Assembly: GCA_963803165.1 (NCBI GenBank)
Contig: CAWDLK010000003.1
Span: 42,513-106,512 of the forward strand
Direction of reading: 5' to 3'
Source: an uncultured Chloroflexia bacterium
GTDB taxonomy: Bacteria > Chloroflexota > Dormibacteria > Aeolococcales > Aeolococcaceae
DNA length: 64,000 bases
Below are positions 15,876 through 62,010 of this stretch, one piece after another; within the stretch, counting starts at the first letter, position 1, and each line of letters starts with the position of its first letter. A model generated the notes under the pieces. That model ran no database searches. It was not told the origin of the DNA and saw only the letters and a list, made by a program, of their open reading frames with translations. A program made the translations under genes and the position numbers.

Positions 15876-16092
15876 CCAAGATGCGCTACTAACGAGGGCA
15901 GATGATCGCCAGTAAGTCAGTGCTCTCGTCGCCGGGGGACTTCATCCATGACTCACAAGACTCGGGGCGATCCCCGCGCCGGACTAAACCCGCCTACCTA
16001 CGTTCCGCGTCTGCTACGCTCAATTCCGCCTTCGGGCACCGCCCCTCGGGGCCAGCTACCTACGGGTCCACACCTCCAAGGAGGTCACGCCG

Positions 16093-16986: not shown

Positions 16987-17093
16987 ACCCACGCGCCAAC
17001 TCCCTGCAGCGCGATCGCCAGGGCTAGACGTTGCCGTGATTGCTGCCACGCATCACATGCACGAGTAGATGCGACACGCCGCGCAACCTCGAT

Positions 17094-18858: not shown

Positions 18859-18924
18859 GCGGTCCAGAATGCTACCCGGCGCGTGCGCAACTCATTGGCG
18901 CCATCCAAACCCTGGGAGCAGCCA

Positions 18925-20427: not shown

Positions 20428-20602
20428 CTCCGTCGTACGCCGGGGCGCGTTCCGGGTGCCTGCAAGCGACTAAGCCAGATGGAGGCCCGGTGCGTGGGGG
20501 TGCCGCGAGTCCCGACCAAGCTGGCGGCCCAGGCGGTAGCCGGGGTGACGGCGAGAGCGAAGAGAAGGGCAACGAGGGGAACGAAGCGACGGGCAGCGGT
20601 GC

Positions 20603-21103
20603 TCACGGCTCGGTGTCCGGAGGCGGGGGCAGGATCGAGACCAACTCGCCGGTGATCTGCACCCCATGGTGGTCGATGAGCTCCTGGAGGTACAGGCCGA
20701 GCTGTCCGCGGAGCTTCCCGAGTGCCTCATGGAGCGCCCCGGACTCGGGGCCCCAGCCGACGGGTCCACCCCACCGGCGACTACGCAGACCCCGCTGCAC
20801 TTCATCGAGGAATGCCCGGCACGCGGCTGCCATCCTCCGCAGGGTCACAGCGAGGTCAACGTCGCGGGGAAGGCGTCCGATCTCGTCAACGAGGTGACGC
20901 CGGATTTCGATGACCGAGACCACGCAGTGGTCGAGGATCTCGATGTCCAGCGGGTTGTATAGGACCCGGCGATCCTCCAGGAACGCGACCAGTCTTGCGA
21001 GCACCTCCTTCTCGACATCCGGTAGGTTCTCCCAGCCAACGCCACCGCCGACGACGGGAAGGCTCACGCTGGTGAGCCGCTTGCGGATACGAGGCCGCGG
21101 CAT
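20603..21103 (-). CDS. hypothetical protein (166 aa)
   Basis: Coherent composition, same strand and upstream of 500-aa gene; no motif recognised. Confidence 0.4.
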   Translation of the reverse strand: MPRPRIRKRLTSVSLPVVGGGVGWENLPDVEKEVLARLVAFLEDRRVLYNPLDIEILDHCVVSVIEIRRHLVDEIGRLPRDVDLAVTLRRMAAACRAFLDEVQRGLRSRRWGGPVGWGPESGALHEALGKLRGQLGLYLQELIDHHGVQITGELVSILPPPPDTEP

Positions 21104-22582
21104 CCGGGCAACGATACCTCGCGAGCCGGGGAAGATCTGGCCCCCCGGCCAGCGGAGCCAGCATGGCCGGCAGCAGCAGCGCCTGCGCTCGGAGGCTCAC
21201 CGCCCCCTTCTCGGGCGTCTCTGGATTCCAAGACCCGAGGTGTCAGGGGTCAACGCATCGCCATCGCGGGGCTTCTGGGCCTTCCCGCGGTGGCCCCGAT
21301 GGGTAAAGGTTTGAGGACCTTCAGGGGCCAGCGCAGCCGGCGGACGGCGTCACGGGCCCGGCGCTGCTCGGCCTGGGCTCGCCGGCTAAGCAGGCGGTAG
21401 CTGCCGTCGCGGAGAGCGGCGATGGCAGGGAGTGCCAGCTCCATGGTGGCCATCGCTTGGGCGGCGAGGACGTCGAGCTTCTGGAGCACCGCCCGGGCGT
21501 CGCGGAGCAGTGTCTCGGTCCGTTTGACCTCCCGGGCGAGGTTGAGCGGATCCCGCGTGGTCGTCGCATCGCCTCCCGTCGCATCATCCCCGGACGCTCC
21601 ATCCGCTGCGTTCGCGATGCAGCCTTCCGATCGCTGCGCTCCTCCCCATCGCCCAGCACGCCGCGTACGTCTGCATTCCCCTCGCCCCACGCCTGCTGGC
21701 GCGTTCGCGCTGTTCTCGGATACCGTACCCTATGCACCCTCCGGTCATCTGTTCGATCCACCCTCCCTGGCGCCACCCTCGACGCCCTCCTGGCACTCGT
21801 CCCGGCGCAGCCCGGGGCGCGGTGGACGGGGCAGCGAAAGGAGGGTTTCGGGGCTCGGCAGCTGCACGCGATGCGCAGGTGTCAGCGGTCGAGGGCAACC
21901 GGCACCGGGCCTCCTGGAGCTCCTTTGAGCACGCGTCCGTGTGCTCAAAGGAAGAGGGGATCTGGTTCGGGATAGGGTGGCGGTGGCCACTCAGCGTCGC
22001 GCCGGGCTGGGTCGTGGCGTGCACTGCCTCGCCCTGCCCGACGACCACAGCCAGTACGAGCTCGGTGAGCGCGAGACCCGGGACCACCCTTCTCCTCACC
22101 GCGAGGGCGAAGGGTGAGACAGCAGCGCATGCGGTTGGCGCGAGCGGCCGACGACAGGCCGGTACGGGTCGTTTGCTGCGTACTGCGCGATCGGTCACGC
22201 CCTCCTCGAGAAGCGCTGGGCTGTAACAAGTCCGTGACGGCGCAGGATCACTCAGCCGCTCCTGTACCCGCAAACGCACCGTCATGAACGCGTCTGTACC
22301 CCCATACGGAGCTAAGGATCGCGTCTGTACTCGCAGTCCCTTCGAACGATGTGGCACCCGTACGCAGGGCTCGGTGCGTACTGTGCGATCGGGTCGGCTT
22401 CGCGCTGAGAGTCGGCGGGACTGCGTACGGGGTTCGTACGCCCCATCTGCTCGCATGGGCCCGTGGAGCGACGAGCCTGGTCACTGTCGGACGGCACGGA
22501 GATGCCCGGGGCGGCACCCCTCCGCACAGACCGCGACGTGACAGCCAACGCCGATGACGTCGGGCCTTCGGGCCCGAACAAC

Positions 22583-22780
22583 ATGGCTTCGGTCGCCTCT
22601 CCGCAGCTCCTGCTATCGGTACCCGAGGCGGCTCGGGCGCTCGGGATCGCCCGCAGCTCGCTCTACGTCCTGATGGACCGTCATGAGCTCACCAGCGTCT
22701 CCATCGGGCGCCGACGGCTGCTCCCTGCGCGCGCCCTCGAGGAGTACGTCGACCGTCTCATCGAACGTTCCCGCTGCTGA
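22583..22780 (+). CDS. xis: excisionase / AlpA-MerR-like HTH DNA-binding protein
   Basis: LLSVPEAARALGIARSSLYVLMDRHELTSVSIGRRRLLPARALEEYVDRL, typical excisionase-family HTH; start placed at the internal Met (MASVASPQ) because the upstream part of the track ORF is non-protein-like; adjacent to int. Confidence 0.65.
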   Translation: MASVASPQLLLSVPEAARALGIARSSLYVLMDRHELTSVSIGRRRLLPARALEEYVDRLIERSRC

Positions 22781-22825
22781 CCCCGGGGGTCCAGGAACGG
22801 GGCGGTCCCCTCCACGCTCCTCTGG

Positions 22826-23077
22826 TCAGGCTGCCGGCTGGACCGGGCGCACCGCCTCGCGAAGCCCCTCCGGATCGAGGTCGGCCCCGTTCGGCCACAC
22901 CACCGTGCCGAGCTCCGGATCGACCTGCACACGGCGGAAGATCGCCAGGTCGCGCAGCGGCTCGAACACCTCACCCCAAAGCTGCTCGGTGAGGTCGATG
23001 TCGCCGACGCTGCCATCGCTGAAGGTGAGCCGCAGCTCGTACCCCTCGCGCGGCTCGACGCTGATCACCTTGACCAC
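22826..23077 (-). CDS. DUF2442 domain protein
   Basis: 83 aa; MVKVISVEPREGYELRLTFSDGSVGDIDL...EPLRDLAIFRRVQVDPELGTVVWPNGADLDPE matches the DUF2442 consensus. Confidence 0.75.
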   Translation of the reverse strand: MVKVISVEPREGYELRLTFSDGSVGDIDLTEQLWGEVFEPLRDLAIFRRVQVDPELGTVVWPNGADLDPEGLREAVRPVQPAA

Positions 23078-23086
23078 GACCCCATC

Positions 23087-23356
23087 CTAAGCCAGCGGCT
23101 CGATGGTGACCAGCGGGCGCTGTTCGAGCACCCGCTGCCAGTTGTCGCGTAGCTCGTCGAGATGGAGGGACGCCCACTCCATCACGTGCCCGAGCGCCCG
23201 GGGAGGGAGCCAGCCGTCGAGGACCGCGAGCGGCTCGATGCCGATCGAGGCCTCGTGCTCGCCGTAGAGGGCGTGGAAGTGAGCGGCGTGATGCCGGCCC
23301 GCCGCCTCCCAGTACATGGCGATGACGATGCCGTAGAAGGCGCTGATCCGGGGCAT
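23087..23356 (-). CDS. DUF4160 domain protein (partner of DUF2442)
   Basis: 89 aa; MPRISAFYGIVIAMYWEAAGRHHAAHFHALYGEHEA, conserved DUF4160 N-terminus; abuts the integrase stop. Confidence 0.75.
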   Translation of the reverse strand: MPRISAFYGIVIAMYWEAAGRHHAAHFHALYGEHEASIGIEPLAVLDGWLPPRALGHVMEWASLHLDELRDNWQRVLEQRPLVTIEPLA

Positions 23357-24648
23357 CAGGCTTCGGGCCGACGACCCATGCGCCGGCGGGCTATCTCTTC
23401 GACAGCCTCACGCTGCATGGTCGGGGTCACGTGCGAGTACAAGTCGAGGGTGATGCCCACCGAGGCGTGGCCGAGCCGCTCCGAGGCCACCTTCGGGTGC
23501 ATCCCGTTCTTGAGCCAGTCCGTCGCCGCTGAGTGGCGCAGGTCGTGGAAGCGGACGTCGGGGAGGGCGGCGCGCCGGAGGAGACCATCGAGGGCGCGAG
23601 TGAGGGTGGTAGTGCTCAGGTAGCGGCCGAACTCGTTGGGGAAGACCAGGTCCTGCTCCACCCACATGGACCCAGCCCGGAGCCGGTCCTGCACCTGGCG
23701 CGCCCGATGTGCACGGAGGGCCTCGACTGTCTCGGGGAAGAGCACCAGGTTGCGCCGCGACCGGCGTGATTTCGGCGCGCCGATGGTGAGCTTCGACCGC
23801 AGTGCCCCTTGCAGCGACCCGGTGACCGACAGCATCCCCCGCTCCAGGTCGACGTCGCGCCAGCGAAGCCCGAGGATCTCGCCCTGGCGCAGCCCCTCCC
23901 GAATGGCCAGGACGAGGAGCGCCTCCAGCCGGTCGCCACGGACCGCCTCCACGAAGCGGTCGTAGTCGGCGTCGGCGAGGACGCGCATCTCGGTGCGGGC
24001 CATCGCCGGACGGGCGTCCTCGTCGACCAGGTCCGCCACGTTGCGGGCGACCTTGCCCTGGCGCACCGCCTTGGCCAGGGCGCGATGGATGACGGCGTGA
24101 ACGTGGTGGGCGGAGGTGGAGCTCAGCCCCATGCCGCCCTCGGCCGGGCTAGCGGTCATCCGCCGGTAGAGACGCTCCAGATCGCCCGGCTCCAGCTTCA
24201 CCAGAGGCTTGGTGGCGAACTCTGAGCGGAGGAGGTGGGCCCTCACGTAGCGGGAGTAGAAGTCGATCGTCGCGGGCTTCAGCTTCGCGGGGAGGCTGGC
24301 GACCCACTCCTGGAGCCAGGCCCCGACGGTGACCCGGGCGTCGGGCAGCGGGAGGCCCTCACGCTGCGTCTGGAGGGCCTCGGCGAGGGCCGCCTCGGCC
24401 TCGTCCTGGCTGTGCCGGTAGAACAGGCGGTAGGTCCCGTCCTCGAGCCTCAGGCGGCCGACCCAGCGGCCATCCTTCCGCTGGATGACGCCCCCCGTGC
24501 CCTTCTTCCGGCGGCCGCGGCGCGTCTCCTGGCGGGCGCCGCGCTCCGCTGACACCCCGTGTGACACCCTGCCGCGGCGACGGGGGCTCTCCGGCTCTTG
24601 ATTCCCGCTATCCTCGTTCACGTCGGCGCTCCTGGTGGAGCCGGCCAC
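23356..24648 (-). CDS. int: tyrosine-type site-specific integrase (phage integrase family)
   Basis: N-terminal SAM-like domain (GVIQRKDGRWVGRLRLEDGTYRLFY), catalytic HDLRHSAAT...LGHASVGITLDLYSHV (R..HxxR..Y); GTG start; an alternative GTG at 24621 has an AGGAG RBS. Confidence 0.9.
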   Translation of the reverse strand: MAGSTRSADVNEDSGNQEPESPRRRGRVSHGVSAERGARQETRRGRRKKGTGGVIQRKDGRWVGRLRLEDGTYRLFYRHSQDEAEAALAEALQTQREGLPLPDARVTVGAWLQEWVASLPAKLKPATIDFYSRYVRAHLLRSEFATKPLVKLEPGDLERLYRRMTASPAEGGMGLSSTSAHHVHAVIHRALAKAVRQGKVARNVADLVDEDARPAMARTEMRVLADADYDRFVEAVRGDRLEALLVLAIREGLRQGEILGLRWRDVDLERGMLSVTGSLQGALRSKLTIGAPKSRRSRRNLVLFPETVEALRAHRARQVQDRLRAGSMWVEQDLVFPNEFGRYLSTTTLTRALDGLLRRAALPDVRFHDLRHSAATDWLKNGMHPKVASERLGHASVGITLDLYSHVTPTMQREAVEEIARRRMGRRPEA

Positions 24649-24751
24649 GTCCCCGGCCGTTGCAGCAGCGCGGGGACTTCACACCTCTAGATGCTATAAG
24701 GTGTCAGATAGGGTGTCAACCTGATACCTTATGAGCGAAATTCCCTGACAC

Positions 24752-24825
24752 GGCGACGTAGCCAAGTGGTAAGGCACGGGTCTGCAAAACCCTGATCGTG
24801 GGTTCGATTCCCACCGTCGCCTCCA
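24752..24825 (+). tRNA. tRNA-Cys (anticodon GCA), CCA encoded
   Basis: Manual fold: acceptor GGCGACG/CGTCGCC, D-arm GCC-AAGTGGTAA-GGC, anticodon loop CTGCAAA (GCA), T-arm GTGGG-TTCGATT-CCCAC, discriminator T, CCA; C27-U43 mismatch in anticodon stem. Confidence 0.88.
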
Positions 24826-24899
24826 ATTCGATGTCACCCGCGCGGGGCGTCACCCGGGCGGAGGGCGCTCCCACTCCGCCGATGGCAGGCGCCCCTCGG

Positions 24900-25874
24900 T
24901 CAGGAGGAGCCGACCGCGGTCTGGGAGTCGAGGGCGGTCTCGATGCCCTGGATGGTCGCCGACGTGCACACCGACGACGGCTGGTTGCCGTCGGCGAGAC
25001 AGACCGCCGCGGTGATCCAGTTGGCGTTGCCGACGATCGCCCGGGTCACCGAGCTGCTCGGCTTGCCGAGGTCGGAGGCGATCTGGGTCCAGGTGAGTCC
25101 CTGGAGCAGCCCGGGATCGTAGCTGGGCGCGTAGAGGACGAACCGACCGGCGATGTCGAGGAAGGGAACGCCGGTGGCCTGCACGGTGTAGGGGGGCTGG
25201 TCGTAGGTCGTGTACACGCTCTCGACCTGCGCGCTCGGAGTCTGGAGCGGATTGTCGTTGCGGTCCTCCAGCTCGGTCGCGCTGAAGTCCACGTACTGGC
25301 TCTGGTAGCTGCTGTCGACGAAGGTGAAGGTGCTGGTGTTGGGGTCGACGTCGGTGCTGTCCGACGACATCTCCTTGAGGTTGCTGAAGCTGCCCAGGCG
25401 GGAGAGGGCCATGATCAGGCTCCACCGCTCGGCGGCGCAGTAGGGGCAGTACTCGGCGCCGACGTAGACGACCTCGGGCAAGCCGTCGGAGCCCTGGATG
25501 GTCCCGCTCCCGCCCAGCCGGATGAGCTGCCCCGTCTGTCCTCCCTTGTCCACGGTGCTGAAGAGGCTCGCGCTGGGGTCGGTCACGGCGTTGAGCACCG
25601 ACGTGGGGACCGTCGTCGGGGTGGAGACCGCGTACGCGGCGCCGCCGGAGTTGAAGGTGATGATCGCGAAGACGGCGATCAGCGCCACCACCACCGCCGA
25701 TCCACCTCCGAGGGCAAGGGGGCTCTGCCACCAGGGCTGCCGCGTCGCGACCGACCCCGGGCGGGCCTGGCGGCGCCTCTGCTTCTTGGTGAGCGGGCGC
25801 TGGCCGGCGAGCGGCGACGACGACGATCCGCTGCGCGACCGGGGGGCGGGACGGGATGGCGGTCTTTGAGGCAT
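24900..25874 (-). CDS. DUF929 family membrane-anchored thioredoxin-like protein
   Basis: N-terminal TM ([15 protein letters not shown]), CxxC motif [13 protein letters not shown] characteristic of DUF929. Confidence 0.7.
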
Positions 25875-51076: not shown

Positions 51077-52354
51077 CTAGGCGCGCTCGATGAGCGTCTG
51101 ACCGTTCGCGGACGACACGATGCCGGCCTCGCCGGCGGCCCAGCAATGGCCGTCGCTCATGCAGGTCATCCCCGACAGCACCGCGCCACCCGCATTGCCG
51201 GGCGGGGCGGCGTCGGAGACGATGGTCCACCCGGATCCCGCGTTCTGCTCGATCAGCGCCGCCGTGTCGAAGCTCTCGTCGCCCGAGAATCCGACGGCCC
51301 AGCAGTCGTCGACGCTGGCGCAGCTCACCCCGCTGAGCGCGCTCTGGGTGCTGCCCGGCGGTATGGGGCTCGGCACGATGCGCCACCCGGCCCCGGTGTC
51401 CTGCTCGATCAGCGTGGGACCGCCGTAGTTGACGTCGCCCCAACCGCCGACCGCCCAGCAATCCTCCGCGCCGGCGCAGCTGATGCTCTCGAGCGCGCTC
51501 TCCACGCTGCCCGGGGGGAGAGGGCTCGAGACGACCGTCCACCCGTGGCCCGTGTACTGCTCGATCAGTCCCTGATTGTCCGAGCCGTCCGCGGTCAGGT
51601 AGGCGCCCACAGCCCAGCAGTCATCCGCGCTCACGCAGGTCACGGCGGCCAGCTCGTCGGTGGCACCGGCGGAGGCGCTCGGGCTCGGGACGATCTTCCA
51701 GCCACTGCCGGTGTACTGCTCGATCACCGTGCCCACCCCCGAAGAATTGGGCCCCGAAGCGTCGGAGTAGCCCACCGCCCAGCAGTCGTCGGCACCGACG
51801 CAGGCAACGCCGTCGAGGTCGATCTCCCCATCGCCCGCTGGAGTGGGGCTGGAGACGACGCTCCAGGCGCCGTCCGCGTAGTGCTCGATCAGGGTGTGGC
51901 CGGCGCCGCTCGCGTCGGAGTAGCGCCCGACCGCCCAGCAGTCCCCGTCGCCGGCGCAGGCCATCGCCTGGACCTGGCTTGACGTGCTGCCCGGAACCGC
52001 GGGGCTCCCCACGATGCTCCAGCCGCTCCCGGTGTCGTGCTCAAAGAGGGTCCGGTCATCGCTCTCGGTGCCGGTGGAATTCCAGTAACCGAGCGCCCAG
52101 CAATCGTCGGCGCCGACACAGGTCAGCCCGTCGAGCGACGCACCGATGCTGCCGGGAGGATCGGGACTGGGGACGGCGGCCCAGGAGACCGGCCCGATCA
52201 CGGCCGCGCTGGGCGTCCCACGCGGGGAGACGCCGGCGCTGGCCGGGCTCGTGGGGGTCCCGGCGCCCTGGGACGGGCCGCAGCCATAGCCGAGGATCAC
52301 CAGACCAAGCGCTGCCGCAGCGCACCACGCACGGTCAACCCGCGGTCCCCTCAT
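51077..52354 (-). CDS. secreted/lipoprotein tandem-repeat protein (about nine ~45-aa repeats with conserved DDCWAVG and IEQYTGSGW motifs), unknown function
   Basis: Signal peptide and LGYGCGPS lipobox-like; repeats GADDCWALGY, GDGDCWAVGRY, GADDCWAVGYS, SADDCWAVGAY, GAEDCWAVGGW, SVDDCWAVGFS, SDGHCWAAGEA each preceded by (L/T)IE(Q/H)(Y/D)TG(S/A)GW. Confidence 0.65.
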   Translation of the reverse strand: MRGPRVDRAWCAAAALGLVILGYGCGPSQGAGTPTSPASAGVSPRGTPSAAVIGPVSWAAVPSPDPPGSIGASLDGLTCVGADDCWALGYWNSTGTESDDRTLFEHDTGSGWSIVGSPAVPGSTSSQVQAMACAGDGDCWAVGRYSDASGAGHTLIEHYADGAWSVVSSPTPAGDGEIDLDGVACVGADDCWAVGYSDASGPNSSGVGTVIEQYTGSGWKIVPSPSASAGATDELAAVTCVSADDCWAVGAYLTADGSDNQGLIEQYTGHGWTVVSSPLPPGSVESALESISCAGAEDCWAVGGWGDVNYGGPTLIEQDTGAGWRIVPSPIPPGSTQSALSGVSCASVDDCWAVGFSGDESFDTAALIEQNAGSGWTIVSDAAPPGNAGGAVLSGMTCMSDGHCWAAGEAGIVSSANGQTLIERA

Positions 52355-52446
52355 CGCCGGCACCCCCACGTCCCGACCATCCGCCCGGTATCCGGGACCT
52401 CGAATATACGAGGGGGGGCCTCACCCACGGCGACGAGGCGCCGGCC

Positions 52447-53894: not shown

Positions 53895-56048
53895 TCAGGC
53901 GGTGGCCCCCTCCGGCTGCGCTTCCTCGATGCGATCGAGGCCGAGACGCCGGTGGAAGCCCGCGAGCCAGCTCGGCGCCCACCAGTTCCACCTCCCCAGG
54001 ATCGCCATCAGCGAGGGGACCAGCAGGGCGCGGACCACGCTGACGTCGATCAGCACCGCCAGCGCCGCCCCCAACCCGATCTCCTTGAGCACCAGGGTGC
54101 TGGAGAGGACCAGGGCCCCGACCGCGATGCAGAAGAGGACCGCGGCCGAGGTCACCACCCGCCCCACCCGCTGCAGACCCAGGGCCACCGCGTCACGCGT
54201 ACGCAGCCCGGAGAGGTACCCCTCGCGGATGCGCCCGAGGAGGAAGACGCCGTAGTCCGTCGACAGGCCGAAGGCTAGGGCGCCGACCAGCACCGGCGTC
54301 TCGATGTTCACCCCTCCGTCCGAGGTGAAGCCCAGCACCCCGGAGAGGAATCCGTGCTGGAAGACCAGCACCAGCAGCCCCAGGGTGGCGCCGAGGGTGA
54401 GCGTGTTCATCAGCAGCGCCTTGACCGGGAGCACCACGGAGCCGGTCATCAGGAAGAGGATGACCAGGGTGGTGATCGCCAGCAGCACGGCGGCGTCCGG
54501 CAGGTGGGCGGCAAGGGTGGACTCCTCGTCGGCGAAGTCCGCCGTGAAGCCGAAGGCGCGCACCTCCAGGCTGGTCGGGATGGCTCGCACCCGGTCCAGG
54601 GTGCTCAGGGCCGGCGTTGAGATGGCCTGGCTCTCGAGCGTGGCGTCGACCTCCCACAGACTGGAGCTGATCCGGTCGGGAGGAGCCACCGACCGCACCC
54701 CGGTGATCCGCGAGACCGCCGCGTCGTAGGCCTGCACCTGCGCGGTGACGGCGGCACCGCCGCTTACCACCAGCTCGAGCGGCGCGGCGCTGATGCCGTG
54801 GTAGGTCGCCGTGATCGCCCGGTCCACCTGGGTGGCCTGCAGGCTGGCGGGAAGCTCCTGGGTGCTGTAGCCGGTGAAGTGGACGGCCAGGGCCGGGATC
54901 CCGATCGCCAGGAGGGCCGCCGCCGCCAGCGGGGCCACCGCCATCCGCCAGCGCATGACCCAGCTGGCCAGCAATGACCAGAAGCCGCGGTCGGCGCCGC
55001 TCGGCGACGAGGCGCGGCGGCGCAGCACGGGGAACATGTCCACGCGGCGTCCCAGCAGGGCGAGGACGGCCGGGAGCAGGACCACCGCATTGAGCGTGGA
55101 GCAGAGCGTGACCATCATCCCCGCCAGCCCCATCGACGAGAAGGCCGGGATGGGGAAGAGCAGCAGGGCGCCCAGGGCGGCGGTGACCGTGGCGGCGCTG
55201 AAGAGCACCGTCCGGCCCGCCGTGGCCAGGGTCCTCTCGAGCGCGGCCGGCGCGACTCCCAGGTGCGCCATCTCCTCGCGGAAGCGGGAGACGATCAGCA
55301 GGTTGAAATCGATGGAGAGCCCGATGCCCAGCGCGTAGACCAGGTTCAGCGAGTACACCGATACCGGGGTGAGGCTGGCCGCGACCAGCAGCAGGAGGGT
55401 GGTGAGGGCGATGCTGACCAGGGCGCCGAGCAGGGGCAGCAGCGCTGACACCACGCTGCCGAAGACCACCAGGAGCAGGACCAGCAGGATCGGCAGGGCC
55501 ACCGTCTCGGCGAAGCTCAGGTCCTTGAGGCTCTGGTCGCTGGCCTGGGCGTTGAGGGCGGTGGGACCGCCGAGGAGCACCCTGCCGTCCAGGGTGGGGT
55601 CGCTGTCGATGCTGGCCTGGAGGGCGTGGGTGGCGGTGTCCTCGTCGACCGTCCGCACCGTCGCCGTCACCAGGGCGGTGCGTCCGCTGTCGGAGATCAA
55701 GGCAGGCGTGCCCAGCGACCAGGCATCGGAGACCGCAACCACCTCCGGGCGGCTGCGGAGCAGGCGGACCGCGTCGGTGACCACCGCGGGGGCGGGGTCC
55801 GCGATGCTGGCGGCCGCAGGAAGGGTGACCAGCAGCTCGTAGCCCTCGTCCGGGTCGGCCCCGGTCGCCCGGAGCAGCTCAGCCCGGGCCTGGGCGCTCG
55901 CCGACGAGGGGTCGCTGTAGTCGGAGTTGCCGTTGGTCAGCTTCCCGGAGACGACTCCCGAGAGGGCGAAGCCGAGCACGGTGAGGCTGACGATCCCGAC
56001 CAGGATGCGCCAGCGGTTGCCGATCACCAGGCGTGCCAATCGGGTCAT
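53895..56048 (-). CDS. MMPL family RND-type transporter (12 TM, two periplasmic loops)
   Basis: Start MTRLARLVIGNRWRILVGIVSLTVLGF at 56048 (the track ORF has a ~310-codon artefactual N-extension); two MMPL halves; divergent from a TetR gene. Confidence 0.85.
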   Translation of the reverse strand: MTRLARLVIGNRWRILVGIVSLTVLGFALSGVVSGKLTNGNSDYSDPSSASAQARAELLRATGADPDEGYELLVTLPAAASIADPAPAVVTDAVRLLRSRPEVVAVSDAWSLGTPALISDSGRTALVTATVRTVDEDTATHALQASIDSDPTLDGRVLLGGPTALNAQASDQSLKDLSFAETVALPILLVLLLVVFGSVVSALLPLLGALVSIALTTLLLLVAASLTPVSVYSLNLVYALGIGLSIDFNLLIVSRFREEMAHLGVAPAALERTLATAGRTVLFSAATVTAALGALLLFPIPAFSSMGLAGMMVTLCSTLNAVVLLPAVLALLGRRVDMFPVLRRRASSPSGADRGFWSLLASWVMRWRMAVAPLAAAALLAIGIPALAVHFTGYSTQELPASLQATQVDRAITATYHGISAAPLELVVSGGAAVTAQVQAYDAAVSRITGVRSVAPPDRISSSLWEVDATLESQAISTPALSTLDRVRAIPTSLEVRAFGFTADFADEESTLAAHLPDAAVLLAITTLVILFLMTGSVVLPVKALLMNTLTLGATLGLLVLVFQHGFLSGVLGFTSDGGVNIETPVLVGALAFGLSTDYGVFLLGRIREGYLSGLRTRDAVALGLQRVGRVVTSAAVLFCIAVGALVLSSTLVLKEIGLGAALAVLIDVSVVRALLVPSLMAILGRWNWWAPSWLAGFHRRLGLDRIEEAQPEGATA

Positions 56049-56115
56049 CGAAGCTTCTCCCCGTCGTTGCTGATGGCAGCCGTCCGGCCTGCCGGGCGGC
56101 GGTGTCCTGGGCTCC

Positions 56116-56158
56116 CTTACGCCGTAAGTGGCGGTCGTCGTGTACCTTACACCGTAAG
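56116..56158. promoter_or_regulatory. two copies of a 13-bp imperfect palindrome CTTAC(G/A)CCGTAAG in the TetR-MMPL intergenic region: candidate TetR operator sites
   Basis: cttacgccgtaag (56116..56128) and cttacaccgtaag (56146..56158) read directly; both lie between the divergent starts 56048 and 56188. Confidence 0.45.
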
Positions 56159-56187
56159 CAAGCCCGGCGCAAGCCGGCGGCGCAAGA

Positions 56188-56936
56188 TGTGCGAACCGAT
56201 GCCCCACCCGATCTCCTCGCCCCCACCACCGAGCCCCGTGGAGGCCGGCGCCCCCCGCCCCGCGGCCGGGCTCGGGGACGGCGAGCGTGCCGCGCTCAGC
56301 CCCCAGCGGATCCTCGACGCGGCCCTCGAGCTGGTCGACGCCGAGGGCCTGGAGGCGCTCTCGATGCGGCGGCTCGGTGCCCTGCTGGGCGTCGAGGCGA
56401 TGAGCCTCTATCACCACTTCCCGAGCAAGTCGGCGCTCCTCGACGGCCTGGTGACCACGCTGCTCCGGCAGGTCCCGCTTCCCGACCCCGGCGACGCCCC
56501 CTGGGAGCAGGCGCTGCTGCGGGGCTTCACCGACTTCCGCCGGGTGATGCTCGCCCACCCCGGCGCCTTCCCCCTGGTCTCCTCCCGGCCGGCCAGCGAC
56601 CCGGAGAGCCTCACCCCCATCGCCCGTGCCTTCGGGGTGCTCGCCGGCGCAGGCTTCAGCCCGAGCCAGGTCAAGTCGGCCTGGGGCGCCCTGCTCTCGT
56701 ACGTGCTCGGCTACATCGACTGCGAGGTGACCGGGGTGGGCACGGCCGCCGAGAGCGGGGCGATGGCCGACCTCATCCGGGACCTGGACGGGCTCGGCTT
56801 CGAGGCGCTCCGCGCGTCGTGGGTCGAGGCAGCTCTCCACGAGCGGACCAATGACGACGAGTTCGCCTGGGGCCTGGAAACGCTGCTCGCCGGGCTCCGC
56901 CTCCGCCTCGCGGAGAACGGACGGCAGCCCGCGTAG
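56188..56936 (+). CDS. TetR family transcriptional regulator (divergent from MMPL transporter gene)
   Basis: HTH RILDAALELVDAEGLEALSMRRLGALLGVEAMSLYHHFPSKSALL; start is the first ATG after the intergenic region. Confidence 0.8.
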
Positions 56937-57022
56937 CCTCAGCCGCCGCGACCCCCGGCGACCGGCCGCCGCGCCCGCCCGGCCCCTGACGGCCAGGCCC
57001 ACCGCCCGCTACACTGGCAAAC

Positions 57023-57712
57023 ATGCGTTCGCCAGTGGGCCCGCTCGACGCCGCCTACCCGGACAACCTGCGCCCCCTCGCCGGCGCGCCTCCGCTCTTC
57101 TGCCGGGGTGAGCTGCGGCCCGACGACGCCCGCAGCGTCGCGGTGGTGGGGACGCGCTCGCCGAGCCCCGAGGGGCTGACCCTGGCCCGGCGGCTCGCCG
57201 CAGAGCTGGCCCGGGGCGGGTTCACCGTGGTCTCGGGGCTCGCCCGCGGCCTCGACACCGCCGCCCACGCCGCCGCGCTCGAGGCCGGGGGACGCAGCAT
57301 CGCGGTGCTGGGCTGCGGCATCGGCCGCGTCTATCCGCCGGAGAACGCCGGCCTCGCCGACCGCATCGCCGGGCGGGGTGCCGTGGTCTCGCAGCACCCG
57401 GGGGAGGCGCCGCCCTCCCCCGCGGCTCTTCGGGAGCGCAACCGGGTCATCGCCGGTCTGGTCCGCGCCGTGGTGGTGGTCGAGGCCGGCCCGACCTCGG
57501 GGGCTCGCATCGCGGCCCGCTGGGCGATGGCTCTCGGCCGGCCGCTCTGGATCACCCAGCTGGTGGCCGCAGAGCCGTGGGTCGGGGGGCTCCTCGCCCA
57601 CTCCGGGGTCCACCTCGTCGGCGGCGGCGCGCAGGGGATCCTGGCCCAGCTCGCGGAGGACGGCTGCACCTCCCCCGTCCAGCTCGCGCTGCTGATGACG
57701 GCCCCGGGATGA
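57023..57712 (+). CDS. dprA: DprA/Smf-like Rossmann-fold (SLOG superfamily) protein, short form lacking SAM and C-terminal wH domains
   Basis: VAVVGTRSPSPEGLTLARRLAAELARGGFTVVSGLARGLDTAAHAAALEAGGRSIAVLGCGIGRVYPPENAGL...RNRVIAGL matches the DprA Rossmann core; 229 aa. Confidence 0.7.
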   Translation: MRSPVGPLDAAYPDNLRPLAGAPPLFCRGELRPDDARSVAVVGTRSPSPEGLTLARRLAAELARGGFTVVSGLARGLDTAAHAAALEAGGRSIAVLGCGIGRVYPPENAGLADRIAGRGAVVSQHPGEAPPSPAALRERNRVIAGLVRAVVVVEAGPTSGARIAARWAMALGRPLWITQLVAAEPWVGGLLAHSGVHLVGGGAQGILAQLAEDGCTSPVQLALLMTAPG

Positions 57713-58368
57713 GCGGCTGCGGCGTCTGCGGGCGCCCGCTCGCGCCGGGCGCGGCCCGCTGCCGCAACCCCCTCTGCGCCAGCGCGTCCCGCTGGTTCCG
57801 CTGGAACGTCGCCGTCGCCGAGCGCAGCGGCCTGCTGGAGGAGGCGCTCAACGCCTACAAGTACCGAGGGGACCGGAGCCGGGCCTGCGTCTTCGGCGCC
57901 ATGCTCGCCGGGTTCCTGGCCCAGCGCAGCCGGCTGGTCGACGGCTTCGACCTGGTGATCGCCAGCCCGACCTTCGTGGGGACGGGCGGTCGCGACTTCG
58001 ACCACGTCCGGCTGATCCTGGCCGAGGCGGCGCGACGGTCGGCGCCCGGCGGCGGCGTGCGCTTCGACCTCGAGAGCCTCCCGGCCATCGTCAAGACCGG
58101 CCCGACCCCGCGCCTCGCCGGCCGGGCCCACCGCGAGCGCCGCCGCATCGCCGAGGAGCGGCTCCGGCCCCTGCTCCGAGTCCCCGATCCGCGGCGCACC
58201 GCGGGCGGTCGCATCCTGGTCTTCGACGACGTCTTCACCGACGGCCGCACCCTCGACGAGGTGGCCCGGGCGCTGCGTCTCCACGGCGGCGCCCGCGAGG
58301 TCTGTGGGATCGCCCTCTGCCGTCAGCCCTGGCGGGATCGCGCCAGCCTGGATGCCAGCGCCGCGTAG
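57709..58368 (+). CDS. comF: ComF-family protein (N-terminal Cys4 zinc finger + phosphoribosyltransferase-like domain)
   Basis: ATGA overlap with dprA-like stop; CGVCGRP...CRNPLC zinc ribbon; PRTase motif ILVFDDVFTDGRTLDE; the track ORF's first 44 codons overlap dprA and are artefactual. Confidence 0.7.
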   Translation: MSGCGVCGRPLAPGAARCRNPLCASASRWFRWNVAVAERSGLLEEALNAYKYRGDRSRACVFGAMLAGFLAQRSRLVDGFDLVIASPTFVGTGGRDFDHVRLILAEAARRSAPGGGVRFDLESLPAIVKTGPTPRLAGRAHRERRRIAEERLRPLLRVPDPRRTAGGRILVFDDVFTDGRTLDEVARALRLHGGAREVCGIALCRQPWRDRASLDASAA

Positions 58369-58380
58369 CAGACTCGCGCG

Positions 58381-58980
58381 ATGGCCCTCAGCGCCCGCGA
58401 CCGGGACGTCCTGGGCTACGCCGTGCGCCACGGCATGGTCACCGCCGATCAGCTCGGCGCCCGCTTCTTCGCCTCCACCCCGTCGGCGCGCCGACGGCTG
58501 CGCACCCTCGGCGCGGCCGGGTTGGTGATCAGCGACCGGGTGCTCCTCACCCTGCCCGCGGTGGTGCGCGCCACACCTGCGGGTGCGCGCCTGGCGGGCT
58601 GCGACCTCCTTCGCCAGGCCCGCGAGGCGCGTGTCGCCGCGGTGGTCAGCACCCAGCAGCTTCCCGACCCGCGCACCGCCCACGCGCTGCGCGGCGCCCT
58701 GCTCGGCGCGGGGTTGCTCATCGCCCACCGCATCGGACCCGACGATGCCGACGCGGTGGCCCGCGTGATCGGCACCGAGCGCGCGGTGCAGGTCACCCGC
58801 ACCCTGGGTGAGGAGGGCTCGCCCCCGCGCCGCTCGGTCCGCTCCGTCGACCGCTTCGCCGTCGACCCCAACGTGATGAAGCAGCTCGCCACCGGGGAGG
58901 CGGTGGTGCTGAGCGTCGCGAGCGTTCGCAGGGTGGCCATCGTGCGCGTGCTCCGGCCGGTGATCGCCGAGGCGGTGTGA
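58381..58980 (+). CDS. hypothetical protein, possible N-terminal winged-helix domain
   Basis: 199 aa between the comF-like and M48-like genes; RDVLGYAVRHGMVTADQLGARFF...RRRLRTLGAAGLV resembles a MarR/replication-relaxation-like wH; stop overlaps the next start (GTGA). Confidence 0.45.
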   Translation: MALSARDRDVLGYAVRHGMVTADQLGARFFASTPSARRRLRTLGAAGLVISDRVLLTLPAVVRATPAGARLAGCDLLRQAREARVAAVVSTQQLPDPRTAHALRGALLGAGLLIAHRIGPDDADAVARVIGTERAVQVTRTLGEEGSPPRRSVRSVDRFAVDPNVMKQLATGEAVVLSVASVRRVAIVRVLRPVIAEAV

Positions 58981-60044
58981 GCGCGCTGCCCCTCTCCACC
59001 GCGACGCCGGCGAGAGCCCACCTCGCCGGACGACCGTGCCGGCGGGCATCCGCCGCCGGCTGGCTGGCTGCCGGGCTGCGCCGCCGCGGAGCCGCCTCGG
59101 CCGTCAGCCTCGTCTGTGCGTGGTCGGGCGTCTGGCTGGCGGTCTGGCTGCTGGTCGCCGACGCCGTGACCGGAGCGCTGCTCTCCGCCCTCGGTGACGC
59201 GGTCAGCACGGCCCTGGTCGGGGGCGGCGGGACGGGGCCGGGTGGGGCGGCGCTCTCGGTAGCGGGTGGCGCGCTGAGCGGCGCGGCGGCCGGGCTCTGG
59301 TCCAGCGTCACCGGCCTGGTGGTGGACGAGCCCCTCCAGTTTCTCACCGCCCTGCTCGCGGGGCTCGTGGTGTCGCTGGCGCTGATCGGCCTGACCGTGG
59401 CGCTGGAGCCGTGGGTGCTCCGCGCGCGCGGCTGCCGGCGCCCGAGCCGGCGCGAGGCCGCCCGGATCGCGCCGCTGCTGGAGGCGGCCGCTGCCGGCCT
59501 GGGGCTGGACGCCCTCCCCCTGCTGCTGATCGACGACGGCGACAACCTCCGGGTCCGCGCCCACGCCCGCCACCTCGTCGTCGGCCGCAGCCTCCTCGAG
59601 GAGATCGGCGAGGGCCCGGCCGGCGACGCCGCCCTGGAGGCGGTGCTCGGCCACGGGCTCCACCACTGGGCGGTGGGCGACGGCGTCGGGCTCCTCGCGG
59701 TGCAGTGCTTCGGCCTCCCGCTGGTGCTCCTCTACGACGCCGGCTGCTGGCTGGCGCAGCGGGGGAGCCCGTTCGTCGCGGTGGCCGGCTGGGCCGTGCT
59801 CTGGCCGGCGTGGCTGCTGGTCCGGCTGATCCTCGAGCCGGTGGTCACCCTGGGCTCGCGGAGGCAGGAGTACGAGGCCGACGCCGCCGTCGCGGCCGCC
59901 GGCCAGGGGGAGGCGCTCCACCGCGCCCTGAGCCTGCTCGGCGAGCTGGAGCCGGGCCGGTCGGGCTGGGCCCGGGTGATCGCGGCCACGCATCCGCCGC
60001 TCGAGCTGCGGCTCGAGGCGCTGGAGCCGGGACCGGAGGGGTAG
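58977..60044 (+). CDS. M48/HtpX-like integral membrane protein with degenerate active site (HGLHH in place of HExxH)
   Basis: Four or more TM segments; EAVLGHGLHHW aligns to M48 EAVLAHELSH with Glu to Gly; downstream QEYEADAAVAAAG and C-terminal ATHPPLELRLEAL are M48-like. Confidence 0.45.
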   Translation: MSALPLSTATPARAHLAGRPCRRASAAGWLAAGLRRRGAASAVSLVCAWSGVWLAVWLLVADAVTGALLSALGDAVSTALVGGGGTGPGGAALSVAGGALSGAAAGLWSSVTGLVVDEPLQFLTALLAGLVVSLALIGLTVALEPWVLRARGCRRPSRREAARIAPLLEAAAAGLGLDALPLLLIDDGDNLRVRAHARHLVVGRSLLEEIGEGPAGDAALEAVLGHGLHHWAVGDGVGLLAVQCFGLPLVLLYDAGCWLAQRGSPFVAVAGWAVLWPAWLLVRLILEPVVTLGSRRQEYEADAAVAAAGQGEALHRALSLLGELEPGRSGWARVIAATHPPLELRLEALEPGPEG

Positions 60045-60057
60045 CGGCGGGAGCGGC

Positions 60058-60750
60058 TCAGCTCCTGAGGTCCACCAGGTCGACGCCCGAGGTGGTGACC
60101 ACCTGCAGCGCGGCGAGCCGGCCGGCGCCGATGCCGGTGGCCCCGACGATGTCCACGCCACCCGTGTAGCCGACCTTCCAGGTCCCGGCCACCTGCTCCG
60201 ACCCGTCCTGGGCGACCGCCACCAGCTGGCACTGGTCCCCAGGGGTGACCCCGGAGACGTCGAGGCGGATGGAGGTCCCCCAGGGCTCGGCGTAGAGCTC
60301 GGCGCTGGCGCTCACCCCGGTGCCGGGATCACTGCCCGAGAGCCGGGCGGCGACCACCGCCGCGGGCGCCGCCGGAGCCGGGCGGGTGGCCACCAGGACG
60401 CCCACCGCGGCCCCCAGGGCCACGACGGCGACCGCGCCGGTCGCCATCACGAGGCGCAGGCGCAGGCGGCGCCTGCGGCGCTGCCGGGCCAGCTCGGCCA
60501 GGGTCCTGGCCACCAGCGACGGCCGCGCCGGAGCGGGAGCCGCTGCGGTCGCGGCGGCGAGCCACTCGGTGCGCGGCACCCGCCCGAGCGTGGGCGTGAG
60601 CTGGGCCAGCGCGGCCAGCTCCCCCCGGCAGTCCACGCAGCCCGCCAGGTGGCCCTCGACCTCGGCGCGCTCCTCCGGGTCGAGGGCGCCGAGCACGTAG
60701 GCGCCCAGGGCGATCCGCCGCTCACCACACGAGCTGTTCATGGCCTCCAA
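60058..60750 (-). CDS. anti-sigma factor (zf-HC2 zinc-binding N-terminal domain, single TM, extracytoplasmic domain)
   Basis: HLAGCVDCRGEL (HxxxCxxC) motif; TM LVMATGAVAVVALGAAVGVLVA; overlaps the sigma factor gene. Confidence 0.75.
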   Translation of the reverse strand: MEAMNSSCGERRIALGAYVLGALDPEERAEVEGHLAGCVDCRGELAALAQLTPTLGRVPRTEWLAAATAAAPAPARPSLVARTLAELARQRRRRRLRLRLVMATGAVAVVALGAAVGVLVATRPAPAAPAAVVAARLSGSDPGTGVSASAELYAEPWGTSIRLDVSGVTPGDQCQLVAVAQDGSEQVAGTWKVGYTGGVDIVGATGIGAGRLAALQVVTTSGVDLVDLRS

Positions 60751-61364
60751 CCTCGTTCCTCCAGCGCCAGGCGCAGGGCGCGGAGCGCGTAATAGGTGCG
60801 TGACTTGACGGTGCCGGCCGGGATGCCGAGGGTCGCGGCGGCCTCGGCCACCGAGCGGCCGCGGTAATAGGTCTCCACCAGCACCCCGCGGTGCTCGGGG
60901 CTCAGCATGCCGAAGGCCGCGCTCACCTCCCAGGCGTCCACCGCCCGGTCGATGCCGTCGCCCACGGCGCGCGTGTCCAGGCCGTCGGTGCCGACCACCT
61001 CGGGGCGGCTCCGGCGCGCCCGGTGGTGGTCGGCGGCCAGGTTGCCTGCCACCGTGAAGAGCCAGGGTCGGAGCGAGCGGGTGCCGGCGTCGAGGTCGCC
61101 CGCATGGCGCCAGGCGCGGAGCATCACCTCCTGGACGATGTCCTCGGCCCGGCCCACGTCGCCGACCAGCCGGGTGACGTAACCGAGCAGGGCTCCGCCG
61201 TGCTCGTCCCAGAGCGCGGCGATGAAGGCCTCGCCGGGGTCCGGGCCGGCGCCGACCGACGCGCTGCGCCGCGCGGTGGGCTGCACACCCCCACCACGCG
61301 GGACGGCCGGGCGAGGTTCATCGCCGGCTGAACCGCGCGGTCCGGACTGTCGTGTGGTGGGCAT
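60738..61364 (-). CDS. ECF (sigma-70 family group IV) RNA polymerase sigma factor
   Basis: Region 2 DIVQEVMLRAWR..., region 4 SVAEAAATLGIPAGTVKSRTYYALRALR; start placed at the internal Met (MPTTRQSG), the track N-terminus being an artefact. Confidence 0.8.
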   Translation of the reverse strand: MPTTRQSGPRGSAGDEPRPAVPRGGGVQPTARRSASVGAGPDPGEAFIAALWDEHGGALLGYVTRLVGDVGRAEDIVQEVMLRAWRHAGDLDAGTRSLRPWLFTVAGNLAADHHRARRSRPEVVGTDGLDTRAVGDGIDRAVDAWEVSAAFGMLSPEHRGVLVETYYRGRSVAEAAATLGIPAGTVKSRTYYALRALRLALEERGWRP

Positions 61365-61419
61365 GGGATCGATCCTCACCGAGGCGGTGCGACCCGCCGG
61401 AGGCGACCAGCGGAGAGAC

Positions 61420-62010
61420 ATGATGAGCGCAAGCACGGCAGCCGGGCCCAGCCCCGCGCCTCGGCACACGGGACGCACCCGACCCCACTCCGGCCCCGCC
61501 GTTCTGGCCCTGCTCGGGGCCGCCACGGCCCTGCTGGCGGCCTGCGGCTCGACCTCCACGCCACCCGCCTCCTCCTCGTCCGGTGCGTCGGACAGCGGGG
61601 GGTCGGCGGTCTCGGTGGGGACGGCGACGGTGAACGGCAAGTCCGAGCAGGTGCTGACCAACGCCAGCGGCTACACCCTGTACTACCTGACCCAGGACAG
61701 CGCGACCAGCGTCACCTGCACCGGCAGCTGCGCCCAGACCTGGCCACCGCTCCTGCTCGCGTCCGGGCAGCCGACCTCCTCGTCGTCGCTGGCCCAGGCC
61801 CTGACCACCGTGACCGGGGGCAACGGCCGCCAGGTCGTGTACGACGGCCACCCCCTGTACCGCTACTCGCTGGACACGGGGCCCGACCAGTCCAACGGCG
61901 AGGGCATCGACAACACCTGGTTCGTGGCCACACCCAGCATGGGCGCAGGCGGAAGCAGCGCCGCCGCCACCGCGACACCGAGCGCGGCCGGCAACGCGTA
62001 CGGGTACTGA
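61420..62010 (+). CDS. COG4315-type lipoprotein with two Yx(F/W/Y)xxD repeats
   Basis: Signal peptide plus lipobox LLAACGS; YTLYYLTQDSA...TCTGSCAQTWPPL and HPLYRYSLDTGPD repeats; divergent from the ECF sigma gene. Confidence 0.65.
   Translation: MMSASTAAGPSPAPRHTGRTRPHSGPAVLALLGAATALLAACGSTSTPPASSSSGASDSGGSAVSVGTATVNGKSEQVLTNASGYTLYYLTQDSATSVTCTGSCAQTWPPLLLASGQPTSSSSLAQALTTVTGGNGRQVVYDGHPLYRYSLDTGPDQSNGEGIDNTWFVATPSMGAGGSSAAATATPSAAGNAYGY

Follow-up and report, generated by a model that had tools for sequence, protein, structure and literature searches.

We examined a cassette of four consecutive genes in DNA from an uncultured Chloroflexia bacterium assigned to the Dormibacteria (assembly GCA_963803165.1, contig CAWDLK010000003.1, positions 42,513 to 106,512). 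This stretch of 64,000 nucleotides, which we call the window, has a GC content of ~72 %, compared to 77–79 % at the cassette locus. The four open reading frames (ORFs) lie on the + strand at 57023–57712, 57709–58368, 58381–58980 and 58977–60044. The stop codon of the first overlaps the start codon of the second by 4 nt (ATGA at 57709), a 12-nt spacer separates the second from the third (stop codon TAG at 58366–58368, ATG at 58381), and the stop codon of the third overlaps the start codon of the fourth in a GTGA at 58977. This arrangement, which the original prediction had described, is read directly from the sequence. NCBI names three of the four proteins, in a Candidatus Dormibacteria metagenome-assembled genome (MAG), as DprA, a ComF family protein and an M48 family metalloprotease. 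The remaining one, ORF3, is a fusion of two truncated genes. The features of the locus are as follows.

57010–57015, + strand: TACACT, a hexamer resembling a −10 element, 7 nt upstream of the first ATG
57023–57712, + strand: DprA-like gene, 229 aa (MGO8687271.1, 'DNA-processing protein DprA'), family PF02481
57709–58368, + strand: ComFC-like gene, 219 aa when started at the ATG within ATGA, with a Cys4 ribbon and a phosphoribosyltransferase (PRTase) domain
57718–57777, + strand: N-terminal Cys4 zinc ribbon of the ComFC-like protein (C4, C7, C18, C23)
58216–58257, + strand: intact phosphoribosyl pyrophosphate (PRPP) loop of the same protein, ILVFDDVFTDGRT (alignments A2 and A4)
58381–58601, + strand: N-terminal part of ORF3, the winged helix-turn-helix (wHTH; residues 1 to ~74) of a MOB_C/Replic_Relax-type relaxase whose nuclease domain is deleted
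58602–58609, + strand: deletion junction, with 1,407 bp missing relative to positions 10229→11629 of the related locus L001 and microhomology CGACCT
58610–58980, + strand: C-terminal part of ORF3, the last ~125 residues of a 435-aa VirD4/TrwB/TraG-like ATPase whose Walker A/B motifs are deleted
58977–60044, + strand: M48-like polytopic membrane protein, 355 aa, family PF01435
59652–59666, + strand: HGLHH, a degenerate HExxH motif, from the motif census
59868–59882, + strand: EYEAD, the retained third-ligand motif, from the motif census

A domain scan of ORF3 (199 aa) returned only sub-threshold matches to Replic_Relax and MarR, and a homology search split the protein in two. Its first ~75 residues match winged-helix (wH) proteins of 209–231 aa, among them a 100 %-identical, 214-aa protein from another Dormibacteria MAG, while its final ~125 residues align with the C-terminal ends of TraG/TraD/VirD4-type ATPases (TraG-D_C, T4SS-DNA_transf and TrwB_AAD_bind). 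Comparison by blastn with L001 (GCA_052139795.1) shows how the two halves were joined. The sequences are 99.98 % identical on both sides, the two alignments overlap by 8 nt, and, where the window has positions 58602–58609, L001 holds a further 1,407 bases. Its operon comprises five genes, for the DprA-like (229 aa), ComF-like (219 aa) and wH (214 aa) proteins, the ATPase (435 aa) and the M48-like protein (355 aa). The 1,407-bp deletion is in frame (469 codons); through it, the wH protein loses its entire C-terminal domain and the ATPase loses residues 1 to ~310, including Walker A/B. We found the deleted allele in a 360-kb contig of ENA ERZ25039540 and, independently, in a Logan unitig of run ERR11523672. 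Therefore, the deletion is a real and very recent allele, rather than a mis-assembly. A third assembly (L002, ENA ERZ25039473 contig_37099) has the undeleted form. Separately, the M48–sigma–PALP region is present at positions 5234–15237 of L002 as a large inverted duplication, with many frameshifting indels; this is probably a long-read assembly artefact and accounts for the fragmented gene calls there.

Because ORF3 arose when an in-frame deletion fused two genes, the native unit consists of five genes and not four. The original prediction had treated the four genes as a complete operon and ORF3 as an unknown wH DNA-binding protein; neither description holds, as the intact operon of L001 has five genes and ORF3 is a chimeric remnant joining a relaxase wHTH to the C-terminal 125 aa of an ATPase resembling type IV coupling proteins (T4CPs). 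No selection for the fusion itself is evident, because the deletion is evolutionarily very recent.

The two ancestral genes were characterized from their intact homologs. In an alignment of 27 wH-protein homologs, an N-terminal winged helix is followed by the invariant residues H88, T110-E111-R112, P135-D136 and E150-x-D152…K, and 19 of the 27 match the Pfam family Replic_Relax (PF13814; best E-value 9.5e-14). The ancestral third gene contains both an N-terminal wHTH and a C-terminal PD-(D/E)xK catalytic domain. Replic_Relax is a PD-(D/E)xK family and the marker of MOB_C relaxases, whose prototype, TraX of pAD1, also carries an N-terminal wHTH (PMC3424549, PMC5357655, PMC12857230). The intact ATPase of L001 matches TrwB_AAD_bind (29.1 bits; gathering threshold (GA) 20.5), AAA_22, DUF87/HerA and, weakly, TraG-D_C, and its Walker A (G57–T64) and Walker B (D298–E299) motifs are invariant in alignment A1. 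Two N-terminal transmembrane segments are present in a 589-aa actinobacterial homolog (L012), and none in the 435-aa Dormibacteria ATPase or the 441-aa ATPase of L014. The intact ATPase (L001 10700–12007) also gives a match (8.5e-16) to 'mad8', a PADLOC model for the MADS defense system, covering almost the whole model, a weak hint that T4CP-like ATPases may also occur in defense operons.

The first gene of the cassette encodes a Rossmann-only DprA-like protein, in agreement with the original prediction. Its match to DNA_processg_A (PF02481; 1.4e-53, residues 8–179) covers the Rossmann/SLOG domain only, and the protein begins at position 13 of the Rossmann profile, leaving no SAM domain. The ORF cannot extend upstream, being bounded by a stop codon, and its start is conserved in six species. 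It scores 173.5 bits against TIGR00732, under the equivalog cut-off of 191.15, and 141.6 bits against NF008007, where the cut-off is 495. In canonical DprA proteins, the Rossmann domain is flanked by an N-terminal SAM domain and often by a C-terminal winged helix; here, the C-terminal ~50 aa matched no family. The best sequence matches in the PDB are Streptococcus pneumoniae DprA (3uqz; 9e-28) and ShosA (9vzo; 7e-21). The protein is 50–52 % identical to the 316- to 318-aa DprA-like partners of distant ComF-like genes, relative to which the Dormibacteria gene is N-terminally shortened to 229 aa.

The second protein combines a Cys4 finger (C4, C7, C18 and C23) with a PRTase domain, again as proposed. 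C7, C18 and C23 are invariant in alignment A2; in alignment A4 (53 sequences), C23 is again invariant, and conservation is at least 90 % for C4, C7 and C18. The PRPP loop ILVFDDVFTDGRTLDE is invariant in Dormibacteria (A2), the canonical loop pattern being DDxxTTGxT, and D173, D174 and V175 are invariant in A4. Against TIGR00201 (comF), the protein aligns over its full length, including the Zn finger, at 6.8e-7 and 29.4 bits (cut-off 233.55); it scores 28.6 bits against GntX (cut-off 304) and 20.6 bits against Pribosyltran (under its GA of 26.3). Its family comprises 113 matches of 100 to 38 % identity and is well separated from canonical double-zinc-ribbon (DZR_2 plus PRTase) ComF proteins, which are only 29–32 % identical (E about 7e-5). 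Sequence and profile searches against the PDB detected only the generic PRPP loop of purine PRTases, so that structure prediction was needed to see the likeness to ComFC. An AlphaFold2 model (pLDDT 93.5) has Helicobacter pylori ComFC as its top Foldseek match in the PDB (7p0h; E 2.8e-5, TM-score 0.50, 171 columns); the margin over HGPRTs and over ShosT (8zvc, ranked fifth) is modest.

The last gene encodes a protein with an M48 domain (PF01435; 1.6e-10, 41.6 bits, GA 20.3) and at least four hydrophobic segments, and it scores far below the NCBIfam HtpX cut-offs. It shares with HtpX-type proteases the Pfam M48 match, the polytopic topology, the two histidines of HExxH and the downstream ExxAD, but the catalytic glutamate is replaced by glycine or alanine throughout the ComF-linked Dormibacteria clade. 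A motif census over 70 loci shows where this loss lies. HExxH is found in every locus that has only the relaxase, ATPase and M48 genes (hereafter the trio), including those of deep Dormibacterota branches, while H[G/A]LxH is found in every locus of the ComF-linked clade, with both histidines and ExxAD kept. The proposal of an M48-like membrane protein thus stands for the domain and the polytopic topology and not for an active site, HGLHH having taken the place of HExxH. Judged from these motifs, the protein is probably a pseudo-protease or a metal-binding scaffold. The absence of transmembrane segments from the Dormibacteria ATPase would be compatible with its anchoring by the M48-like protein.

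All five genes are under purifying selection. Pairwise ratios of nonsynonymous to synonymous substitution rates (dN/dS, NG86; approximate at this GC content) between orthologs across species range from 0.14 to 0.49 (M48-like, 0.15–0.36; ATPase, 0.14–0.28; wH, 0.20–0.31; ComF-like, 0.17–0.36; DprA-like, 0.31–0.49). Therefore, the genes are real, and all five, including the M48-like gene that has lost its glutamate, are maintained by selection in intact loci.

Upstream of the first gene, the block GCTACACTGGCRAACATG, which includes TACACT, is conserved across six species whose proteins are only 60–70 % identical (alignment A5: the window, L003, L006, L007, L026 and L034). This conservation points to TACACT as the probable −10 element of an operon promoter, which would produce a leaderless or very-short-leader transcript. 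Scans of the locus for sigma-70 consensus promoters and intrinsic terminators were empty, which is uninformative in a region of 77 % GC. A repeat search around the cassette for att-like or oriT-like repeats found only short, chance-level matches, and no tRNA gene lies within 25 kb of it.

We surveyed the trio by scanning the ATPase alignment against GTDB species representatives, which yielded the 70 loci of the motif census. The distant loci (n = 43; ATPase 24–47 % identical) belong mostly to Solirubrobacterales, Acidimicrobiales, Gaiellales and other Actinomycetota. The wH gene is immediately upstream in 40 of these 43, the M48 gene is downstream in 32, a tyrosine recombinase is within 10 kb in 25, and a DprA-like or ComF-like gene is present in none. 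Single distant loci also carry integrases on both sides, HTH_3 regulators, or SSB, ArdA and a primase Zn-ribbon (L014). From these gene contexts, we conclude that the trio is the DNA-processing part of integrative, probably mobilizable, elements.

Such elements share several properties with MOB_C modules that carry a VirD4/TrwB-type ATPase, namely the wHTH and PD-(D/E)xK domains of the ancestral third gene, the P-loop, TrwB_AAD_bind and TraG-D_C matches of the fourth, the two N-terminal transmembrane helices of the actinobacterial homolog, as in T4CPs, and the copies located beside tyrosine integrases, SSB and ArdA. They differ in that the relaxase-like protein is short (209–258 aa), no oriT or type IV secretion system (T4SS) genes were identified, and an M48 membrane peptidase gene is the invariant third partner of the trio; the Dormibacteria version moreover lacks the integrase, the ATPase transmembrane segment and the M48 catalytic glutamate. 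To our knowledge, an M48 third partner has not been described for MOB_C modules, and we found no paper that reports one.

The Dormibacteria-type loci (n = 25; ATPase at least 55 % identical) contain no integrase (0/25) and share chromosomal neighbors, with glyoxalases upstream and an ECF sigma/anti-sigma pair downstream. In 17 of the 25 representatives, the ComF-like gene is linked to the relaxase and ATPase genes on the same strand with the 12-nt gap; it is missing from the other 8, and only 5 have the DprA-like gene. The ComF-like gene follows unrelated genes in L024 and L030, that of L023 is degenerate, six representatives keep the ATPase and M48 genes only, and L052 is a remnant with ATPase residues 266–430 and the M48 gene. 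Two metagenome contigs (L097 and L098) match L019 at 99 % identity as far as ATPase residue ~281 and from there run into a tyrosine-integrase gene. The cassette is accessory and has been broken independently several times. A combination of repeated breakage and purifying selection in intact copies is what accessory or conflict systems typically show, and it is untypical of housekeeping recombination genes. With no integrase, conserved synteny, clade-confined loss of the glutamate and dN/dS of 0.14–0.49, the Dormibacteria trio is a candidate case of domestication.

Three further observations concern these loci. The integrase genes in L097 (2340–3481) and L098 (3335–4178) are 45–48 % identical to the integrase beside the actinobacterial trio of L012. 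A related integrative element may target the ATPase gene for insertion. The ATPase breakpoints fall in one shared stretch (~281 in L097 and L098, ~266 in L052 and ~310 in the window). In L101–L103, L107, L108 and L017, which belong to lineages without the DprA-like gene, the ComF-like gene and the relaxase gene are separated by about 670–700 bp instead of 12 nt, which suggests an extra small gene or an insertion.

Elsewhere, the DprA-like and ComF-like genes form a pair of their own. We compiled non-redundant loci without the trio from the contexts of distant relatives of the ComF-like gene, a metagenome scan and a viral scan, and recorded the position of the DprA-like gene as follows.

Directly upstream of the ComF-like gene, same strand: 41 loci
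Convergent, downstream of the ComF-like gene: 2 loci
Absent beside the ComF-like gene: 3 loci
Position hidden by a contig end: 5 loci

The DprA-like gene therefore adjoins the ComF-like gene in 43 of the 46 informative trio-free loci, and the distant ComF-like genes have the 316- to 318-aa DprA-like gene immediately upstream with no trio present. Hundreds of soil-metagenome contigs carry the pair, always with different neighbors. Three of the loci come from IMG/VR contigs, and in one of these the pair has an Amidase_2 lysin next to it; Pfam searches on the neighbors in these viral contigs identified only that domain and a UvrD-like helicase. In L086, the pair lies between an HTH/M78 (ImmA-like) gene pair and a large serine recombinase. 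Clustering of the flanking ORFs revealed no conserved third gene around the free-standing pair. With adjacency conserved, flanks variable and no third gene conserved, the two genes constitute an autonomous module that moves from one context to another. Its two members diverged together, as indicated by identities to distant partners of 50–52 % for the DprA-like protein and 41–45 % for the ComF-like protein.

Pair and trio are joined only in Dormibacteria; in all other loci, the pair is never with the trio, nor the trio with the pair. The original prediction had suggested that a SLOG/DprA-like protein and a PRTase form a recurrent conflict-type module, which agrees with their adjacency in unrelated contexts. 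It had also named a lack of co-conservation with the downstream genes as evidence against itself. Inside Dormibacteria the pair is co-conserved with those genes and elsewhere it is not, so that this counterargument applies in part. Overall, its observation was real but incomplete and its interpretation is partly supported: it was right as to the pair but mistaken over ORF3 and over how many genes the operon has. As a separate observation, L085 (6132–7363) encodes a 195-aa ComF-like protein that lacks the Zn ribbon and is 41 % identical to the window's; no DprA-like gene precedes it, a MarR-family protein follows, and Zeta-toxin and PRiA4_ORF3 genes are nearby. It may be another variant of the PRTase module.

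The closest described systems are ShosTA and PsyrTA/RqlHI, which are toxin–antitoxin systems with demonstrated anti-phage activity where the PRTase acts as the toxin and is neutralized by the DprA-like protein indirectly, through single-stranded DNA (ssDNA) and RecA (PMC11961720, PMC12961424, PMC9122126, bioRxiv 10.1101/2022.05.11.491447). ShosTA of Escherichia coli APEC O1 (type IV toxin–antitoxin/abortive infection) likewise has adjacent DprA-like and PRTase genes in variable, often mobile, contexts, though ShosA has the SAM domain that the cassette's DprA-like protein lacks. ShosT (424 aa) consists of an N-terminal pyrophosphatase-like hydrolase domain and a C-terminal PRTase (PMC11961720). 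A phmmer comparison of the ComFC-like protein to the ShosT chains gave no match at E≤10, and in structure only the PRTase part superposes. PsyrTA/RqlHI also pairs a DprA-like partner with a protein containing a ComFC-like PRTase domain. In PsyrT/RqlH, however, a RecQ-like SF2 helicase and the PRTase are fused, whereas the cassette's PRTase stands alone, the PADLOC model of PsyrT covers it at positions 630–684 of 689 only, and the sole motor nearby in intact loci is the separate T4CP-like ATPase of the FtsK/HerA/TrwB class. Because the ComFC-like protein has neither the pyrophosphatase-like domain of ShosT nor the helicase of PsyrT, we place the pair in the DprA–PRTase class as a separate variant, not within ShosTA. 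The competence proteins ComFC and DprA resemble the pair in the Cys4 finger and PRTase domain, the best structural match (H. pylori ComFC) and the DprA Rossmann domain. They differ from it in that the cassette's proteins score under the curated cut-offs, are patchy within their lineage and occur in prophage and mobile-element contexts.

We consider it somewhat better than even (a probability of roughly 0.55) that the window carries a recently deletion-damaged copy of a Dormibacteria-specific, translationally coupled five-gene cassette, built from two older modules and of a conflict or mobile-element type. Most likely, the genes belong to an accessory conflict or mobile-element cassette and are not housekeeping competence genes. 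The first module is the DprA-like→ComFC-like PRTase pair, with a domain layout as in ShosTA and PsyrTA/RqlHI but with a small PRTase of the Zn-ribbon ComFC type. This PRTase would bind PRPP or nucleotides, ssDNA, or both, and would be harmful or act on the replication of foreign DNA; the DprA-like protein would bind ssDNA and RecA and thereby counteract or gate the PRTase. The second module comprises the MOB_C-type relaxase, the VirD4/TrwB-like ATPase and the M48 metalloprotease; in Actinomycetota, it lies next to tyrosine integrases and forms the DNA-processing and coupling part of integrative (mobilizable) elements. In Dormibacteria, the trio has been immobilized, with the integrase, the ATPase anchor and the M48 glutamate gone, and is kept behind the ComF-like gene under purifying selection. 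In the window, the deletion took the relaxase nuclease domain and the ATPase motor, leaving only the DprA-like/PRTase pair and the M48-like protein able to work. The data above show the gene structure, the deletion, the origin from two modules, the co-occurrence counts, the motif loss and the selection, whereas toxicity or defense and the functional coupling of the two modules are inferred.

Several observations weigh against this reading. The ComFC-like protein, with 219 aa comprising a Cys4 Zn ribbon and a PRTase, has no counterpart of the ShosT pyrophosphatase-like domain and is structurally nearest to ComFC, a non-toxic competence protein. The PADLOC models score the DprA-like protein at 180 bits (ShosA) and the ComFC-like protein at 27 bits (ShosT), but as controls the housekeeping E. 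coli proteins Smf and YhgH/GntX score 195 and 27 bits, respectively. Since the housekeeping proteins score the same, these matches carry no specific information, and we rejected the hits to ShosA, ShosT, PsyrA and PsyrT as a direct identification. The DprA-like gene is missing from 12 of the 17 ComF-bearing Dormibacteria representatives; many Dormibacteria have a fully conserved ComF-like gene and no DprA-like neighbor, a pattern that is hard to reconcile with a strict toxin/antitoxin relationship. Finally, a mere relic would not be expected to show purifying selection on all of its five genes across species.

The strongest alternative, to which we give perhaps half as much credence, is that the cassette is a non-toxic machine for ssDNA handling or DNA transfer, a five-gene system that imports, exports or establishes DNA with the help of a T4CP-type motor, a nicking relaxase and a membrane (pseudo)protease. 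The ComFC-like protein would receive ssDNA at the membrane and hand it to the DprA-like protein, which would load RecA, as in transformation; outside Dormibacteria, the pair would be mobile-element cargo that protects or establishes incoming ssDNA. ComFC binds ssDNA and interacts physically with DprA in S. pneumoniae and Campylobacter jejuni (PMC9005727), and dyads of a PRTase and DprA are repeatedly seen with DNA motors, examples being ComFA/ComFC and the RqlH helicase-PRTase with RqlI (PMC5512222; bioRxiv 10.1101/2022.05.11.491447). The resemblance of the predicted structure to H. pylori ComFC, the full-length alignment to the ComF and GntX models, Zn finger included, and the persistence of an intact ComF-like gene in lineages that lost the DprA-like gene all favor this alternative. 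So do the tight same-strand linkage of the ComF-like gene to the relaxase and ATPase genes in 17 of 25 representatives, with its 12-nt gap, and the L086 pair, whose element also encodes a Replic_Relax protein. On the other hand, the 46 informative pair loci outside Dormibacteria have no adjoining transfer gene or conserved neighbor, the trio of Actinomycetota functions in the absence of the pair, a search of 10 kb around showed neither a ComEC-like channel nor T4SS genes, and the cassette has been broken repeatedly, including in the window.

A bolder proposal, which we regard as quite improbable, is that the Dormibacteria pair is hard-wired to a soluble, T4CP-type hexameric motor, a nickase with a restriction-endonuclease fold and a dead M48 scaffold. 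The whole would be an undescribed chromosomal machine for DNA translocation or for defense against conjugation or phage, and the third PRTase–DprA motor coupling after ComFA–ComFC–DprA and RqlH–RqlI. Separately, the free-standing pair would be a new and widespread two-gene defense or toxin–antitoxin family.

It is more doubtful still that these are the genome's housekeeping dprA and comFC, next to unrelated genes by chance. The NCBI annotations and the strong DprA domain match fit this explanation, the locus is syntenic among related Dormibacteria, and no second dprA or comF lies within the 64 kb inspected. Yet the DprA-like protein falls under the TIGR00732 equivalog cut-off and has no SAM domain, while the ComF-like family is only 29–32 % identical to canonical ComF and far below the TIGR00201 cut-off. 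The DprA-like gene is confined to 5 of the 25 Dormibacteria-type representatives, with the ComF-like gene missing from 8, and orthologs of the pair occur in prophage-like and recombinase-bearing regions. Canonical dprA and comFC genes are, moreover, not adjacent, as in E. coli, where smf and yhgH are ~110 kb apart. Least credible of all is the four-protein complex first proposed, in which ORF3 serves as a dedicated wH protein for regulation or DNA binding and DprA–ComF is held at the envelope by the M48-like protein; the four ORFs are intact and in frame with their overlaps kept, the fusion retains a complete wHTH and the M48-like gene is under purifying selection in other species, but ORF3 exists only in the deletion allele, its place is taken by two separate genes in the 99.98 %-identical strain and in every other species, and the fusion has no nuclease domain and no ATPase P-loop.

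In the window, the cassette is flanked on one side by a divergent MMPL transporter/TetR regulator pair (53895–56936) and on the other by a convergent pair of zf-HC2 anti-sigma and ECF sigma genes (60058–61661), with the anti-sigma stop codon 13 nt from the stop codon of the M48-like gene. The flanks are themselves variable, since the MMPL/TetR pair is missing in some related species (L003–L006). At 51077–52369 on the − strand, the window encodes a secreted-looking, 430-aa protein with ~8 tandem repeats of ~45 aa, each containing a DDCWAVG motif, that resembles a beta-propeller; a 447-aa relative with faint BNR/Sortilin matches is located directly downstream of the cassette in L007–L009. Farther away, positions 10000–25000 have a lower GC content (64–70 %, compared to about 72–78 % elsewhere) and are bounded by tRNA-Leu (9999–10085, − strand) and tRNA-Cys (24752–24825) genes. 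This stretch could be a genomic island.

Two practical lessons follow from the locus. An ORF that looks intact in a MAG may be a deletion chimera, and PADLOC matches to ShosA and ShosT alone do not separate defense genes from housekeeping DprA and ComF. The pair is widespread and uncharacterized, although the DprA–PRTase layout itself is already known from ShosTA and PsyrTA. If the pair behaves like these systems, it would represent a third, compact DprA–PRTase defense architecture, with a Zn-ribbon, ComFC-type PRTase and the DprA-like gene first; the line between competence protein and immune effector would be blurred, which bears on the function of ComFC's PRTase domain. The trio appears to be an unrecognized and widespread mobilization module of Actinomycetota integrative elements, and its immobilized, yet selected, version in Dormibacteria is a clear candidate for the domestication of mobile genes in a poorly studied phylum.

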